Source: Escherichia phage Lw1
DNA: 64,000 nt
Strand: one strand, 5' to 3'
Sequence record: KC801932
Shown: positions 16,655-26,530 of the stretch, in pieces
How the letters are laid out: the number at the start of each line of letters is the position of its first letter
Numbering within the stretch: the first letter of the stretch is position 1
The notes under the pieces: model-generated
What the model saw: only the letters and a program-made list of their open reading frames with translations
The model's database searches: none
What the model was told of the DNA's origin: nothing
Made by a program: the position numbers and the translations under genes

Positions 16655-16662
16655 TATAAATA
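16655..16662 (+). promoter_or_regulatory. T4-type late promoter core TATAAATA upstream of gene 20
   Basis: Exact TATAAATA; followed by stem-loop AGGGGTA-gcaa-TACCCCT and a T-run. Confidence 0.5.
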
Positions 16663-22058: not shown

Positions 22059-22109
22059 ATGGTGTAAATAGATACAGGATAAAAGCCCTCTAATTCAGGA
22101 ACCAAAGAA

Positions 22110-23408
22110 ATGAGTGAAAAACATTACACAATTCACAAGTTGATGCGTCAGTCTACGCTTCCCCCTGGTAAACGCGAAAAGGTTATCAACGAAGCAACTG
22201 GAACGACCGACATCAACGTACAGAACACGCGCCCAGAACTGGTTTCTTTGACTCGCGCTGTTAACAACCTGATCTATCATGAACTGGTTGCTGTACAAGA
22301 AACAAATTTACCCGTAGCAACTCTGTTTGGTGTTCGCTATCGTAACCCTAACGGCGACATGACTTTCTCCAGCGCTGCAACCTATTCAGGCCGCATATCT
22401 GGACGTACAGACATCGACGATATCGATCTGGCTAAGGCATACGTCAAAGGCGATTTATTCAAGCACGATGTCACTGACGTTGTGTATGAGGTCATCGAAC
22501 CTGTAACGCTAAACGCGCTGGATACTGATAAAGACACCGCAATCATGAAAGCTGTGTTCCAAAGTAAAATTCGTTTGGTTAGCGAAGCCGCAGACACTTC
22601 AAAATATGAAACCAGTGAAGATATCGCATCAACCTCTTTCCAGATGGATCGCTGGAACATTCCGGTTCGTTCACGTAAGTTTAAAACTGAAATGACCGTG
22701 GAATTGATGCAGGATCTGGAAGCAAACCAGTTTGAAGCCGATGGGGTAATTGAAGATATCCTGGGTACGGTTGCAAGCGAAGAAGTCAACAAAGATATTA
22801 TTCAGACGCTGATCACCGTTTCCAAACGATATAACGTTGATGGTGTAGTTGTCGATGGTATTTTTGACGGTACAACCGCATACACTGCGAAGGATGCTCC
22901 AGCATTGGGCCGCATACTCTATCAATTAGCGTGTGAAATGGGTCAAGAAATGAATAGAACGACTTCATTTGATGCAACCTACGTCCTCGCTAGTGCTCGC
23001 GTTGTAGGCGTTCTGGCTGCGTCTGGTTGGATGACCGAAACCGACGAACAACACCCGCTGGCAACTGGTAAACTTCAAAACGGTTATTATGTCTATACCG
23101 ACACGAATACACCGTTTGATTATCTGCTTACCGGATGCAAATACGATCTGGGTGATATGGATCACGTAGGTTCTCTGTTCTTCACTCCGTACACCGAAGC
23201 GGATGAAGCAGGTTCAATCAAGGTATCCGTAGATCCTGCATCACTGCAACCGAAAGTTGCTATTCTGATGCGTTACGGTTTATCTGTGAACCCATACACA
23301 ACGGAATCCGACTCTGAACGGTTGACCAAAGGCGATGACTGGTCGAATCTGGCTGGTAAATCCAAACTCAGTCAAATCGTAGGTATTAAATTACCTAAGC
23401 TGGGTTAA
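22110..23408 (+). CDS. 24: capsid vertex protein gp24
   Basis: 432 aa; gp23 paralogue-like fold signatures (YGLSVNPYT near the C-terminus parallels gp23 YGIGINPFA); synteny. Confidence 0.85.
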   Translation: MSEKHYTIHKLMRQSTLPPGKREKVINEATGTTDINVQNTRPELVSLTRAVNNLIYHELVAVQETNLPVATLFGVRYRNPNGDMTFSSAATYSGRISGRTDIDDIDLAKAYVKGDLFKHDVTDVVYEVIEPVTLNALDTDKDTAIMKAVFQSKIRLVSEAADTSKYETSEDIASTSFQMDRWNIPVRSRKFKTEMTVELMQDLEANQFEADGVIEDILGTVASEEVNKDIIQTLITVSKRYNVDGVVVDGIFDGTTAYTAKDAPALGRILYQLACEMGQEMNRTTSFDATYVLASARVVGVLAASGWMTETDEQHPLATGKLQNGYYVYTDTNTPFDYLLTGCKYDLGDMDHVGSLFFTPYTEADEAGSIKVSVDPASLQPKVAILMRYGLSVNPYTTESDSERLTKGDDWSNLAGKSKLSQIVGIKLPKLG

Positions 23409-23426
23409 TCAAGTTTTGAGAAGACC

Positions 23427-23455
23427 ATTATAATAACAAAGATCAAGAAGGTCAA
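23427..23455 (-). promoter_or_regulatory. sigma70-like promoter (TTGACC-N17-TATAAT) reading leftward, antisense to the 3' end region of gene 24
   Basis: Minus-strand -35 = rc of GGTCAA (23450-23455), -10 = rc of ATTATA (23427-23432); mirror image of the uvsY promoter. Confidence 0.4.
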
Positions 23456-23457
23456 AC

Positions 23458-23621
23458 GAGCGAAGCGAGTTTTCACGAACGAAGTGAGTGATGGGTACTA
23501 CTAACTACATAATTATATTTTTATATTTTATATATAGAGAAAATGTAGTTTTTGGTATGGTTTTTAACCAACTGTAAACTATCCGTCTTCGCTTCGCTCA
23601 TTCATGTACTCACTTCGTTCG
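23458..23621. repeat. interleaved inverted repeats flanking an AT-rich spacer
   Basis: gagcgaagcgag (23458-23469) vs its reverse complement in cttcgcttcgctc (23587-23599); cgaacgaagtgagt (23476-23489) vs exact reverse complement actcacttcgttcg (23608-23621); core motif CGAAG(C/T)GAG occurs four times. Confidence 0.7.
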
Positions 23622-23626
23622 TAGAT

Positions 23627-23654
23627 TTGACTTCTTGATCATGATGGTTATAAT
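23627..23654 (+). promoter_or_regulatory. near-consensus sigma70-like promoter (TTGACT-N16-TATAAT) upstream of uvsY
   Basis: TTGACT 23627-23632, TATAAT 23649-23654; 24 nt upstream of the uvsY ATG. Confidence 0.6.
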
Positions 23655-23677
23655 ACTACTTTGTTTTGAGGTGATTC

Positions 23678-24100
23678 ATGGCTGAACTAAAACTTGAAGA
23701 TTTACAGGCTGAACTCGAAAAGGATATGTTGATCGACCCTCTGAAACTACAGAGTGAATCAGCAGACATTCCTAAGATTTGGTCTAAGTGGCTTCGATAT
23801 CATTCGAATGCTAAGAAAAAACTGATCCAGCTACAGGCCAGGAAAGAAGCAGAAGTGAAAGAACGGCTTCTGTACTATACTGGAAGACACGAAACCGAAA
23901 TGACTGATGTCATTTACACGGGTTCAGGTGAAATCAAGATCGCGATCAACGGTGATCCGAAAATTGTTGAGGTTAACAAACTGATTCAGTATTTCGAACT
24001 GATTGCGGAATTCACCAGTAAAGCCCTGGACATTGTTAAGAACAAAGGATATTCTATCAAAAATATGTTGGAAATCCGAAAACTTGAAAGTGGTGCATAA
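23678..24100 (+). CDS. uvsY: recombination mediator protein UvsY
   Basis: 140 aa; LEDLQAELEKDMLIDPLKLQ, YSKWL..HS, ARLLYYTGR match recalled T4 UvsY (137 aa). Confidence 0.88.
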   Translation: MAELKLEDLQAELEKDMLIDPLKLQSESADIPKIWSKWLRYHSNAKKKLIQLQARKEAEVKERLLYYTGRHETEMTDVIYTGSGEIKIAINGDPKIVEVNKLIQYFELIAEFTSKALDIVKNKGYSIKNMLEIRKLESGA

Positions 24101-24101
24101 A

Positions 24102-24284
24102 ATGGCAGAATTACAAGAAGACTGTAAATGTGTGGTTTGCAAAAGACCGATGGTGACTGCTACTGGTTTTGTTACTGAATCTGGTCCCGTGTGTGGCCCT
24201 ATCTGTGCGCAGTATTTGATTGATCGCAACAAATCCGGTCTGAATGAAGCTGACGATCTGAACGAAGTTCAGATGTTGCTATAG
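24102..24284 (+). CDS. small cysteine-rich protein (uvsY.-1/-2-like position)
   Basis: 60 aa from ATG 24102 directly after the uvsY stop; C-x-C-x-x-C ... C-x-x-x-C pattern suggests a zinc-binding module; the track ORF 24003-24284 is the same frame extended upstream. Confidence 0.5.
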   Translation: MAELQEDCKCVVCKRPMVTATGFVTESGPVCGPICAQYLIDRNKSGLNEADDLNEVQMLL

Positions 24285-24293
24285 GTGGAAATA

Positions 24294-24431
24294 TGAACGA
24301 CTATTCGAAAATCGACTTTAACGAAGTATTTCGTTTGCTGGGATTGATGGAAGAATGTGTGAACCATGTTCATTCACTTCGAATTAAATTTGAAAGTGGT
24401 TGCAATGAAGATGAACATCCATATTTTTAGG
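24294..24431 (+). CDS. small hypothetical protein (45 aa)
   Basis: ATG 24294 preceded by AGGTGGAA; below the 60-aa cutoff of the ORF track. Confidence 0.3.
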
Positions 24432-24756
24432 GTAGGTAAAAAGTTGCCATAGGCAAGACAAATCAAACTATAGGACAAACTTACGGATAGCCTAACGCCG
24501 AGGTGAGAACGTTAACTTTTGTCCGAGGCGGGTTTGAGTTCGAAACGCAAGGATCGGACGCTCTAAATACTGGTGTACCCCTTGTGGGGCTTGGGCTTGC
24601 CGTGTGGCGTACCCTTTTGCGCCGTCCGATAGAGTTTACTTTCGGCGGGGTGATTGGTAAGATACCTTCGAGTAAAGGCCAGTTAATTGTAATTCAGAAT
24701 AGTACAGCACTGAAATAAAATAAATGTATGTGTCGGAACAAACGGTTTCCGAAATT
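24432..24756. other. G+C-rich non-coding stretch with several hairpins (candidate structured RNA)
   Basis: No convincing ORF with ribosome-binding site on either strand; local hairpins such as TTGCC-ata-GGCAA, GTCCGA...TCGGAC, CGGACG...CGTCCG, TCGGAA...TTCCGA. Confidence 0.25.
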
Positions 24757-24791
24757 AAAAAGCCCCTTCCTTTCGGTTGGGGCTTTCTTTT
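24757..24791. terminator. bidirectional rho-independent terminator between the uvsY operon and uvsW.1
   Basis: AAAA-AGCCCC-ttcctttcggtt-GGGGCT-TTCTTTTT; A-run and T-run on both sides; convergent genes. Confidence 0.7.
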
Positions 24792-25021
24792 TAAAACTTC
24801 TCTTCTTCTCCGGTTTCGAGTTCGGCTTTCAGTTCTTCTCGCCGTCCCTTGATCGCGTCACGCATTGAAATATCATCGGATGCTGCGACCTCGACTTCTT
24901 TCACGCGTGTGTTGTAATACTTTTCAAGTTCTTTCAAACCGTCCAGTGTCCGGCACGAAGCAACCTTATTCATGAAATCATCAATCGCGGCTTCGTTTAC
25001 AAATTTGGTAAAACTTTTCAT
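24791..25021 (-). CDS. uvsW.1: UvsW.1-like small protein
   Basis: 76 aa ORF immediately downstream of uvsW on the same strand, as uvsW.1 in T4 (76 aa); assignment by size and synteny. Confidence 0.55.
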   Translation of the reverse strand: MKSFTKFVNEAAIDDFMNKVASCRTLDGLKELEKYYNTRVKEVEVAASDDISMRDAIKGRREELKAELETGEEEKF

Positions 25022-25030
25022 TGTAACCTC

Positions 25031-26530
25031 TTAAATGTCTACTTGTTTGATCACGTAGTCGAATCGTTCTTCGTTGTAGATCCGCACACGTTCGATCGCA
25101 TGTTTCATGCCGTAGTTCGTCGCACTGTATTTATTTTTAGCTGTTTTTGACTTCGACAGCGTAGCCAGGTTATCGACGATATCCCATACAGTTGCAAGCA
25201 GTTTCGAACCATGCTTACGAAGAACACGTCCGATTGACTGTTTCACAACAACAGCGGATTTGCAAGGATGTGCAAAAATGATGTGATGCAGGTTCTTGAT
25301 TGAAATACCTGTACTCAGTACCCCGATCGAACCGATGACGATTAAACCTTTCGTCGATTCTGCAATCTTCTTCATTTCGTTACGATCGTCAATCCCTGTA
25401 TCACCGTTAATCAGTACAACGTTATCGTAAACCTTGCTCAACTGCTCGTATAGCCATTTTCCGTGTTCTTTGTACCGGAACATCACGAATGTGTTTTCGT
25501 TCTTCTCACGGGACAGTTTAAGGGCTAATTTAAGAATCCATGAGTTGCGCCTTGTATGGCTCGTAACGTATTTGATTTCGGTCTGGTAGTCCGCACCTTT
25601 TAACTTCTTAACCTCTTCTTCTTTGTATCGAAGAAAGATTGTGTTAATTTTCAGGTTGGTGACTTGTCCATCATCCATCAGACGACGCGTATCAACTGGT
25701 TTAAAGACTTTACCGAACGCACCGATGTATTGCATCATGTTTGTTTTCCCTTCTTTCAGGGAACCGGATAAGCCCAGTTTGAAGATACATTGATCCATCG
25801 TGTCGATAATCTTTTTGATGCTCATACCTGTTGAGAGGTGGCATTCATCAACCATCAAGCACATGAACTGTTGGAACCATTCGGCAGGCATTTTAACCGC
25901 TGATTGCCAGGTTGAAACGTAAATCAACGCGTTACTGTTTTTTGCTGTGCCGGAACGGATACCAAGCATTGCCGATTTCGGGAACAGTCGATAGTTTGCG
26001 ATGTCTTCGATCATTTGGTCAACAAGTGCGGTAGTCGGAACGATAATCAACACCTTTCCGCTGTAATGTTCCAGACACCAACGAGAGATAAGCCCCTGAA
26101 TCAGAGATTTACCTGCTGATGTTGGCAGGTTCAGGACACCGCGACGGTTTTTGATACCGTGGAATACCGATTCTCTTTGATACCAGTACGGATCTATTTG
26201 TTTGTCACCGTCATAAACTGGATGGTCTTGAATCCACTTGTCAAAACTTTCCTGCGTGATATCCTCAGTTTCATGGATTTTTGGATCAACCCAGATTGAA
26301 TACCCGCGAGACTCTGCAAATTTTGATACCAGATAGGCTAACCCATACGGAAGTTTACCGTTGTAGTCCATCAGGTAGATATACCCGTTCCATCCACCAT
26401 ATTTGTATTTGGCTTGATACTGATAGCCTGGGGGCTGGAATGAAAAATAGTCACGCAGTTCATAGACTATGTTAGCGTCTGCCTGAATCTGTACGTGGCT
26501 TGTGTTTAAATATTTGACTTCAATATCCAC
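25031..26530 (-). CDS. uvsW: DNA/RNA helicase UvsW
   Basis: 499 aa; GTG start; SF2 helicase motifs (PTSAGKS, DECH, TSTG); N-terminus MDIEVKY..., size matches T4 UvsW (about 500 aa). Confidence 0.88.
   Translation of the reverse strand: MDIEVKYLNTSHVQIQADANIVYELRDYFSFQPPGYQYQAKYKYGGWNGYIYLMDYNGKLPYGLAYLVSKFAESRGYSIWVDPKIHETEDITQESFDKWIQDHPVYDGDKQIDPYWYQRESVFHGIKNRRGVLNLPTSAGKSLIQGLISRWCLEHYSGKVLIIVPTTALVDQMIEDIANYRLFPKSAMLGIRSGTAKNSNALIYVSTWQSAVKMPAEWFQQFMCLMVDECHLSTGMSIKKIIDTMDQCIFKLGLSGSLKEGKTNMMQYIGAFGKVFKPVDTRRLMDDGQVTNLKINTIFLRYKEEEVKKLKGADYQTEIKYVTSHTRRNSWILKLALKLSREKNENTFVMFRYKEHGKWLYEQLSKVYDNVVLINGDTGIDDRNEMKKIAESTKGLIVIGSIGVLSTGISIKNLHHIIFAHPCKSAVVVKQSIGRVLRKHGSKLLATVWDIVDNLATLSKSKTAKNKYSATNYGMKHAIERVRIYNEERFDYVIKQVDI

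Follow-up and report, generated by a model that had tools for sequence, protein, structure and literature searches.

The gap of about 330 bases between the uvsY operon and the convergent genes uvsW.1 and uvsW of Escherichia phage Lw1 very likely encodes a structured non-coding RNA on the + strand, composed of two modules that fold independently and are exchanged horizontally among related phages. The gap occupies 24432-24790 of the 64,000-nucleotide (nt) stretch of record KC801932 that we analyzed (the window), and BLAST against 50,697 phage records places the phage with the T4-type Pseudotevenvirus group (RB16, RB43, leB). A first-pass annotation had described this gap as non-coding and locally G+C-rich, and had listed a structured small RNA, a degraded gene remnant and a processing or regulatory element as possibilities. 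The description is borne out, since G+C is 0.55 in 24431-24760 and reaches its maximum of 0.553 in 24500-24649, against about 0.37-0.45 in the flanks. Of the possibilities, the structured small RNA is now strongly supported: two RNA domains, which we call module A and module B, fold on the + strand and carry compensatory changes.

Module B contains three hairpins. H1 (24578-24589, +) is a GC hairpin, CCCC-UUGU-GGGG, located 3 nt from the predicted 5' end of the RNA; it occurs once in the window and is present in every relative with loops that vary (UUGU, GAAA, UUU, UGUAAU). H2 is an irregular hairpin of 87 nt (24594-24680, +), and H3 pairs 24693-24697 with 24710-24714 on the same strand around the loop AAUAGUACAGCA; both were obtained with RNAalifold. 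In the alignment of nine sequences, 99% of cells are paired and 9/32 pairs have changes on both sides. As a control, the structure was slid by 1-3 columns, which left 0-1 compensatory pairs, and 0/500 shuffles reached the observed covariation score. When a covariance model was made from this set of nine, the window yielded a single hit (184 bits) and RB16-type loci yielded none. The same model finds a diverged module B in the Pantoea phage Phynn (111 bits, E = 3.5e-28), a phage that was reached via a different module and was absent from the set from which the fold had been derived. Phynn keeps the fold, with an apical stem that is nearly all re-written yet paired. With Phynn added as a tenth sequence, 18/37 pairs of module B are compensatory and 97.8% of cells are paired, as compared to 0-4 compensatory pairs in the slid controls. 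Within H2, 14/27 pairs are then compensatory and helix 4 is 99.3% paired; in H3, 3/5 pairs covary and pairing is 100%.

While the stems of H2 change, its unpaired nucleotides do not, or hardly so. The internal loop, GGCGUAC / UUGRUAANAUAC, is invariant. The apical loop is AGUUUA in the window, in KP15-type phages, in KLB21 and in Phynn, and AAUUUA in three close relatives (HMGUkp1, RB43 and JC221). By eye, none of the K-turn, sarcin-ricin and T-loop readings fits the internal loop. The 3' domain of module B (24693-24729, +) consists of H3 and a probable pseudoknot. A tentative H-type pseudoknot may form here, in which the H3 loop (GUACA, 24702-24706) pairs over an A-rich linker with the tail (UGUAU, 24725-24729). 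Covariation is seen at two of its five pairs and comes only from Phynn; overall, 94% of cells are paired, and 3 sequences break one of the pairs. In Phynn the counterparts are GACACAA and UUGUGUC, and the pairing grows to 7 base pairs (bp).

The G-U pairs of module B bear on which strand folds. H2 pairs 45/99 and 55/87 are G-U in 10/10 sequences, and other pairs alternate between G-C and G-U. G-U pairs are also present in helices P1 and P4 of module A (see below). Such pairs point to RNA and to the + strand because the other strand would carry A-C mismatches. Judged by this pattern, the fold of module B is that of a + strand RNA and not of a DNA cruciform or of a structure on the uvsW strand. 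Folding 24575-24793 as a single sequence recovers H1, H2, H3, the following hairpin H4 and the terminator. No further module copies were found in the window by short-word BLAST, motif search or the covariance model. One copy per genome window, together with closed domains, is consistent with units that fold independently.

Several smaller features of module B were seen. A direct repeat is spaced 34 nt apart (TGGTGTACCCCTT at 24571-24583 and TGGCGTACCCTTT at 24605-24617). The tetranucleotide GUAC occurs four times: H1 has it on its 5' side, H2 in its internal loop and H3 in its loop, and the fourth copy is in the tail, where relatives have AAAUGUAC and the window has UGUAU; a repeated recognition motif is conceivable. 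A pairing of 24635-24645 with 24749-24759 was rejected, as it is not conserved in KP15-type phages. H3 also resembles what we take to be the L11-binding region of 23S rRNA (AAUAG...CACUGG), a likeness that is not relied on here.

Module A (24428-24565, +) is a four-helix junction, obtained as the minimum-energy structure of this segment and compared in a hand alignment of five lineages (the window, JC221, Roth22, Phynn and a lineage labeled L025). The closing helix P1 pairs UAGGGU with GCUCUA (24428-24433 / 24560-24565) and includes the UAG stop codon (24428-24430) of the upstream open reading frame (ORF). A purine-rich linker, AGGUAAAAAG, leads from P1 to P2 (UUGCC-AUA-GGCAA, 24444-24456), and a second linker, GACAAAUC, lies 3' of P2. 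The variable body P3 (24465-24537) and P4 (24538-24559), which pairs GUUCGA with UCGGAC around the GCAA-containing loop AACGCAAGGA, complete the junction. Across the five lineages, 17/17 pairs of P1, P2 and P4 are standard, and single positions show as many as 4 pair types. All five share the linker AGGNAANAA, P2, the linker GACRAAYC, the GCAA-containing P4 loop and the closing helix. P3 varies from 47 to 80 nt and is mostly unrelated in sequence among them. This number of pair types would be hard to reach by chance. Covariation across related phages, which the first-pass annotation had named as a check on its reading, has come out in favor of RNA structure in both modules. In a scan of IMG/VR with the 5' motif of module A, the true matches were only RB16, CfP1 and L025; the remaining matches were chance ones inside coding sequences (CDSs), for example a DNA-methyltransferase-like motif identified by eye.

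Directly 5' of the terminator lies H4 (UCGGAA...UUCCGA, 24733-24752, +). It is identical in leB-type phages; KP15 has another hairpin, UGGGC...GUCCCA, at the same position, and Matisse-type phages have none. The terminator loop UUUCGG could base-pair with CCGAAA of the H4 3' strand; we rejected this pairing since it is not conserved in KP15-type phages. The bidirectional intrinsic terminator (24755-24794), which the first-pass annotation had placed at the end of the gap, is common to the RNA array and the convergent uvsW.1-uvsW operon. It consists of a GC-rich hairpin, AAAGCCCC...GGGGCTTT (24759-24766 / 24779-24786), with a 5' A-run and a 3' T-run as arms, TTAAAAAG and CTTTTTAA (24755-24762 / 24787-24794), and is conserved in all relatives. 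The first-pass annotation had also named four hairpins. All four exist as complementary stretches, and evolution backs two of them: TTGCC-ATA-GGCAA, which is P2 of module A and is kept in relatives, and TCGGAA...TTCCGA, which is H4 and has weaker evolutionary support than P2. The other two, GTCCGA...TCGGAC and CGGACG...CGTCCG, clash with the covarying helices P3/P4 and H2 and are not retained in JC221 or leB.

A T4-type late (gp55) promoter-like element, TCTAAATA, is located at 24562-24569 on the + strand, with a predicted +1 at G24575. T4 late promoters span -13 to -6, and their first T (-13) is poorly conserved in T4 relatives; Aeh1 uses CTAAATA (PMC1524935). An element of the form xxTAAATA-N5-G is found 5' of the array, or of the last modules of the array, in 17/17 lineages examined. 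The perfect TATAAATA occurs in KP15, KLB21, L025 and Phynn, and CATAAATA occurs at the locus in Matisse and JC221. CTAAATA-type elements are CCTAAATA in Roth22 and L027 and TCTAAATA in the window, RB16 and CfP1; GTAAATA-type elements are AGTAAATA in leB, RB43 and GuL6 and TGTAAATA in PF-CE2. The major head gene of the window likewise has TGTAAATA, not TATAAATA, at 22064-22071, and the 10-mer GTAAATAGAT stands both 5' of this gene and 5' of module B in leB-type phages. For L025 and Phynn, transcription is predicted to start at the very base that opens helix P1 of module A. Inside 24431-24760, the search for sigma-70 sites gave only one weak 9/12 match (24693-24721).

From the promoter-like element and the terminator, we predict a late primary transcript of about 219 nt (24575-24793, +) carrying module B, H4 and the terminator. 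Module B is thus probably made as a late small RNA of its own, about 220 nt long, that would run from TCTAAATA through H4 to the terminator. In this phage module A is predicted to be reached only by operon read-through; lacking a promoter of its own, it would be made as a 3' extension of the uvsY operon mRNA. Our search of the literature found no transcriptome for these genera, Slopekvirus included. Elsewhere in the window, late-promoter-like elements are followed by a GC hairpin within about 5-8 nt at 16655 (TATAAATACAGGGGTAGCAATACCCC), 60047 (TCTAAATATGATCGGGGGGTTGGGAATCCCCCG) and also 10158, and a 5'-end hairpin on late transcripts may be general in this phage.

Comparison of relatives shows that the locus is assembled from exchangeable parts. 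No record among the 50,697 spans the whole arrangement of the window. Positions 24432-24594 are 100% identical to RB16, Miller and KKP_3664, and 24564-24760 are 95.9% identical to leB, Margaery, HMGUkp1 and many others, 91.5% to RB43 and about 80-83% to Slopekvirus phages (KP15, Matisse, Roth22). Numbered from 24432, the RB16-type match covers 1-163 and the leB-type match covers 133-329; their overlap of 31 nt, CTCTAAATACTGGTGTACCCCTTGTGGGGCT, is the promoter/H1 cassette. Judging by this overlap, H1 also serves as a recombination joint shared by module types. The window, with A+B, is a leB-type backbone with an RB16-type module A, and the Slopekvirus phages Roth22 and 150040 have the analogous A'+B.

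Six blocks were distinguished when the locus was compared in 17 lineages. Block A is present in the window, RB16, CfP1 and JC221 and, in diverged form, in Roth22/150040, L025 and Phynn. Block B is found in the window, the leB type, RB43, the KP15 type, JC221 and Phynn; block C in EC-W1, KLB21 and JC221; and block D in RB16, GuL6, PF-CE2, CfP1, L021, L025 and L027. Block E is shared by JC221 and L021, and block F by L025, L027 and Phynn. Combinations found in relatives include A+D, B, A'+B, A+E+B+C, A+F+B, H1+D and others. Every lineage has a small pre-terminator domain in which a short stem is followed by AAUAG (AACAG in L025, AAUGA in Phynn). This domain is either H3 of module B or the module D core, UUAGAAUAG, with a hairpin whose stem covaries (GCGGUG/CACCGC versus GUGUG/CACAC). 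GuL6 and CfP1 have the minimal unit of promoter-like element, H1, AAUAG domain and terminator, and distant T4-like phages (L028-L037) have one small hairpin and the terminator only. Whole modules (A, B and at least four others) are thus swapped between conserved joints, of which one is where the upstream ORF ends, one is the promoter/H1 cassette and one is the terminator.

Scans of larger collections did not extend the range of module B beyond these phages. In IMG/VR only known lineages were found, and the hits in metagenomes were three KP15-like contigs. A set of 185,579 species genomes gave one match, to the Flagellimonas marina assembly (NZ_JBHSCL010000010.1), where a contig of 178,077 bp carries a leB-type module B (179.5 bits). 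Its size and content make it almost certain that the contig is a Pseudotevenvirus genome contaminating this assembly of a marine Bacteroidota species. A blastn search of 5,426 complete E. coli genomes for host sequence that the RNA might mimic gave no match.

The additional modules of the relatives were inspected as well. Modules C (...TTATGTGGTCGAAAGATTC...), E (GGGCAAGGGCATGTTTACCGATGG...) and F (...GTGGATTTGCTAACGTAACGCGC...), seen in JC221 (L003), EC-W1 (L006), KLB21 (L014), L021, L025, L027 and Phynn (L042), show compensatory stem changes by eye and have no Rfam match. The JC221 gap holds about 830 nt of such non-coding module sequence. Outside the modules, directly 3' of uvsY.-2, Phynn has a 69-nt tRNA-like gene (284-352 of the locus) that ARAGORN calls tRNA-Ser(GCT). 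The Rfam tmRNA model matches this gene over its full length, scoring 40 bits against a threshold of 47. Read by eye, the acceptor stem, GGGGAUA/UAUCUCC-A-CCA, would give G3:U70 and an encoded CCA, features that can be likened to alanine-accepting tRNA-like domains.

For the arrangement as a whole, we lean toward a modular RNA, part of it made as a late small RNA, that acts in trans in a manner dependent on its fold. H1 near the 5' end and the terminator hairpin at the 3' end would protect the ends of the RNA. A stable, abundant accessory late RNA could then use its fold to bind, or titrate, a protein of the phage or of the host. (Nearly) invariant unpaired loops of H2 amid covarying stems are what is expected if a partner reads unpaired nucleotides. 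Conservation of the loops, late timing, protected ends and presence or absence among near-identical phages together suggest a stable accessory RNA. Fold-dependent protein binding, or titration as a decoy, is the function we guess to be likeliest for such an RNA, with low confidence. Antisense pairing to a single mRNA is less consistent with the pattern of conservation.

Several observations weigh against this interpretation. Folding energy is unexceptional, with dinucleotide-shuffle z-scores of -1.49 for 24432-24790 on the + strand, -1.42 for module B (24575-24793) and -1.53 for module A (24428-24565). Because these scores are unremarkable, the hairpins cannot be called non-random from one sequence and the evidence must come from relatives. 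The diversity among those relatives is small, with about 6-7 independent lineages for module B and only 5 for module A, and the hand alignment of module A could favor the structure. The pseudoknot is tentative because its covariation comes from a single lineage, Phynn. The element of the window agrees with the TATAAATA consensus at only 6/8 positions. It also overlaps the 3' strand of P1 of module A, so part of its conservation may be structural, and internal copies of module B in long arrays (JC221, Phynn) have no promoter of their own. The start, 3' end, stability and abundance of the transcript are all inferred. Finally, the evidence does not separate protein binding from other functions in trans.

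The alternative that survives best, although we consider it unlikely, is that the array acts only in cis as a 3' untranslated region (UTR), blocking 3'-to-5' exonucleases or directing processing, stabilizing the uvsY-operon mRNA and insulating the convergent operons. Consistent with this, module A has no promoter of its own here and adjoins the last stop codon directly, the array as a whole is placed between operon and terminator, and the hairpin and terminator of distant T4-like phages look like an ancestral 3' end that was later elaborated. However, an exonuclease barrier needs neither invariant internal and apical loops amid covarying stems nor a late-promoter-like element conserved in 17/17 lineages. 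Additionally, module A of L025 and Phynn, beginning at the predicted +1 of a perfect TATAAATA, stands at a 5' end. We ranked protein binding above a pure 3'-UTR stabilizer because the loops are kept while the stems drift and because the late-promoter-like element is always present.

The fold-dependent, trans-acting RNA that we favor has a broader and more speculative form, to which we give a rather low probability. The uvsY-uvsW gap of Pseudotevenvirus, Slopekvirus and their relatives may be an RNA island, a late composite transcript of at least six interchangeable modules (A-F) that serve as decoys in counter-defence or host takeover. Each module would titrate a different host protein, for example an RNA-targeting abortive-infection nuclease, and the tRNA-like gene of Phynn with its G3:U70 would count among the parts of the island. 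If so, T4-type genomes would have in this island an RNA equivalent of their small-ORF hyperplastic regions. To our knowledge, the accessory, fast-swapping content described in T4-type phages is almost all protein-coding, and we know of no classic non-tRNA RNAs of these phages other than rnaC and rnaD, which have no assigned function. The exchange of cassettes spans phages of Klebsiella, Enterobacter, Cronobacter, Citrobacter, E. coli, Yersinia and Pantoea, and many carriers (KP15-like, leB-like) are candidates for phage therapy. A late, trans-acting RNA, if confirmed, would provide a tractable RNA-based system of host manipulation or counter-defence for which natural gain and loss variants exist.

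A role for module B as a sensor or antitermination RNA, tuning read-through antisense to uvsW.1/uvsW and hence late expression of the UvsW helicase, appears improbable. Its probable pseudoknot, A-rich linker and invariant loops do resemble a small ligand- or polymerase-binding RNA, and it lies directly 5' of the terminator that faces the convergent operon. The complementarity of the H4 3' strand to the terminator loop also speaks for this role, but it is absent in the KP15 type, and Matisse-type phages lack H4 altogether. In EC-W1, KLB21 and JC221, module C inserts between B and the terminator and would break an expression platform. No known riboswitch or antitermination family was matched.

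A still less probable explanation places the function in the DNA, as cruciforms or single-stranded hairpins, a recombination hotspot, a replication or packaging signal, or scars of illegitimate recombination. With its conserved joints, the locus is plainly a hotspot of recombination, and it is flanked by the recombination genes uvsY and uvsW. The invariant and covarying G-U pairs, however, are asymmetric between the strands, and irregular helices, conserved asymmetric internal loops and a probable pseudoknot are features of RNA and not of cruciforms. Scars would not give compensatory substitutions.

Protein coding was considered for the sole long ORF of the gap, the track ORF (24503-24718, +; GTG start, 71 amino acids (aa)). 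The first-pass annotation had doubted it, and rightly: it has no conserved start or ribosome-binding site and is not a gene. That a micro-protein with the core RTLLRRPIEFTFGGVIGKIPSSKG is made in this frame, possibly overlapping the RNA structure, seems to us highly implausible. The frame is open in all sequences (across the core in 10/10), and this G+C-rich segment has other open frames as well. An ATG is available in Slopekvirus phages and JC221, some genome annotators call a CDS of 38-45 aa at the locus, and inspection gives a slight third-position excess of changes that is not statistically significant. Against translation, start codons vary in type and position, RB43 lacks both GTGs and is left with only a 22-codon TTG ORF, no Shine-Dalgarno sequence is visible for this frame, and indels shift the frame in H1 and 3' of the core. 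For every one of the radical non-synonymous changes (G-to-E, G-to-D, S-to-I and I-to-M), the helix partner carries an exactly compensating change. The Phynn translation RRTLRCCLMKFIISSIVDKILPVKASE is identical to WRTLLRRPIEFTFGGVIGKIPSSKGQ of the window at 8/26 residues, while the RNA pairs are all kept. A search of 5.8 billion proteins with the track ORF returned one 41-aa cluster of 4 member sequences. The ORF has no PHROG or Pfam family, whereas the neighboring 45-aa and 60-aa ORFs have families.

GenBank records contain 'hypothetical protein' CDSs across modules A and B (850-1026, -, in L003; 255-618, -, in L011; 1655-1789, +, in L001; and 488-613, +, in L014). These are probably gene-caller artefacts over structured RNA, and several records would thus carry spurious CDSs over these RNAs on either strand.

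Least probable of all is that the gap holds the remains of a degraded gene, or is neutral spacer in which hairpins arose by chance. This would suit z-scores of only -1.4 to -1.5 and a region that varies among close relatives, but there is no support for it given covariation far above the shuffled and slid controls, a module B kept from Pseudotevenvirus to Slopekvirus and the Pantoea phage, and protein homology in no frame.

The gap lies between two convergent sets of genes. On the + strand lie the major head gene (22110-23408), uvsY (23678-24100), the DUF2685/uvsY.-2 ORF (24102-24284; Pfam, E = 7.4e-07) and the last small ORF of the uvsY operon (24293-24430; 45 aa; phrog_12503, E = 1.1e-30). 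On the - strand, uvsW.1 (24791-25021; Pfam UvsW-1, E = 1.2e-17) and uvsW (25031-26530) converge with the + strand genes. The uvsY.-2 ORF has a C-x2-C...C-x3-C pattern (CVVC...CGPIC) typical of a zinc ribbon, and its KLB21 record is annotated with HHpred similarity to ribosomal protein L24e; the protein has no sequence match in the PDB. Small, possibly RNA-binding and encoded just 5' of the RNA array, it may be a candidate partner. Between the major head gene and uvsY, 23408-23680 contains a long imperfect inverted repeat with a very AT-rich centre (ATAATTATATTTTTATATTTTATATATAG). It is flanked by mirror-image, near-consensus sigma-70 promoters, TTGACT-16-TATAAT on the + strand (23627-23654, 11/12) and TTGACC-17-TATAAT on the - strand (23455-23427, 11/12). 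For this interval, either a divergent region of early promoters or a replication origin of the ori(uvsY) kind is conceivable.

We compared the RNA of the gap with known families and systems. Rfam 15, searched at E <= 10, assigned the region to no family; the best hit, freshwater-1, scored 17.4 bits where the threshold is 72, and its structure is a different one. Across the loci of eight relatives, Rfam at E <= 0.1 gave only terminator look-alikes and the tRNA-like gene of Phynn. ARAGORN found no tRNA or tmRNA in the 64-kb window and, in the loci of eight relatives, only the Phynn gene. These two checks, which the first-pass annotation had suggested, were negative, so the RNA does not belong to a known family. 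Our search of the literature likewise found no description of these RNAs.

The closest relatives in kind are the T4 rnaC and rnaD (species 1 and 2) RNAs, likewise highly structured and encoded by a T4-type genome, of about 120-140 nt, with closed terminal helices and a dedicated RNA-gene locus. The Phynn locus, too, has a tRNA-like gene beside its modules. The T4 RNAs are cut from a tRNA precursor by RNase P. Unlike them, the units described here seem to run from a late promoter to a terminator. The T4 RNAs lie in a tRNA cluster, whereas the window is without any tRNA. BLAST gives only 6-8-mer chance matches between the T4 RNAs and the stretch, and the module B covariance model has no match in the T4 tRNA region (69500-74500).

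RB49-type phages reportedly carry mobile regulatory cassettes termed PeSL (promoter-early stem-loop), which Arbiol and colleagues are said to have described in 2010. In both cases a short cassette of promoter and stem-loop forms a recombination joint between unrelated inserts of a T4-type genome. The counterpart here is the 31-nt TCTAAATA-N5-H1, the overlap of RB16-type and leB-type sequence. The promoter-like element here is late (gp55) and not sigma-70 early, and the cargo is structured RNA and not small ORFs; a sigma-70 early promoter and stem-loop flanking small ORFs was not found at the locus.

The T4 gene 32 leader pseudoknot and the type III antitoxin ToxI are pseudoknotted RNAs that bind protein. 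Phage PhiTE mimics ToxI, so that a phage RNA acts as a decoy for a host defence protein. With its putative compact H-type pseudoknot and A-rich linker, module B may resemble the gene 32 leader and ToxI. Unlike ToxI, whose tandem repeats measure about 34-36 nt, it has no tandem repeats and no adjacent toxin gene, its neighbors being the uvsY-operon ORFs and uvsW.1; unlike the gene 32 leader, it has no autoregulated gene downstream. Nor is it placed as a riboswitch or 5' leader, since only the terminator and the convergent gene lie downstream. A ToxI primer sequence is given in PMC5772629. The GGUGAUU...UACCUU of H2 was tried as a ToxI-like element and set aside as chance, being inside covarying helices and not conserved in Phynn. 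Module F of relatives has the 9-mer GAUUUGCUA in common with the ToxI antitoxin.

By kind of evidence only, the modules can be likened to the csRNAs, candidate structured RNAs of viruses predicted by computation (PMC10690425; 8,495 IMG/VR candidates), and to the Weinberg/Breaker catalogues. With the csRNA catalogues they share a covariation-supported intergenic phage motif without an assigned function. The folds described here lie outside Rfam 15, and structured non-coding RNA encoded by phages is a known kind.

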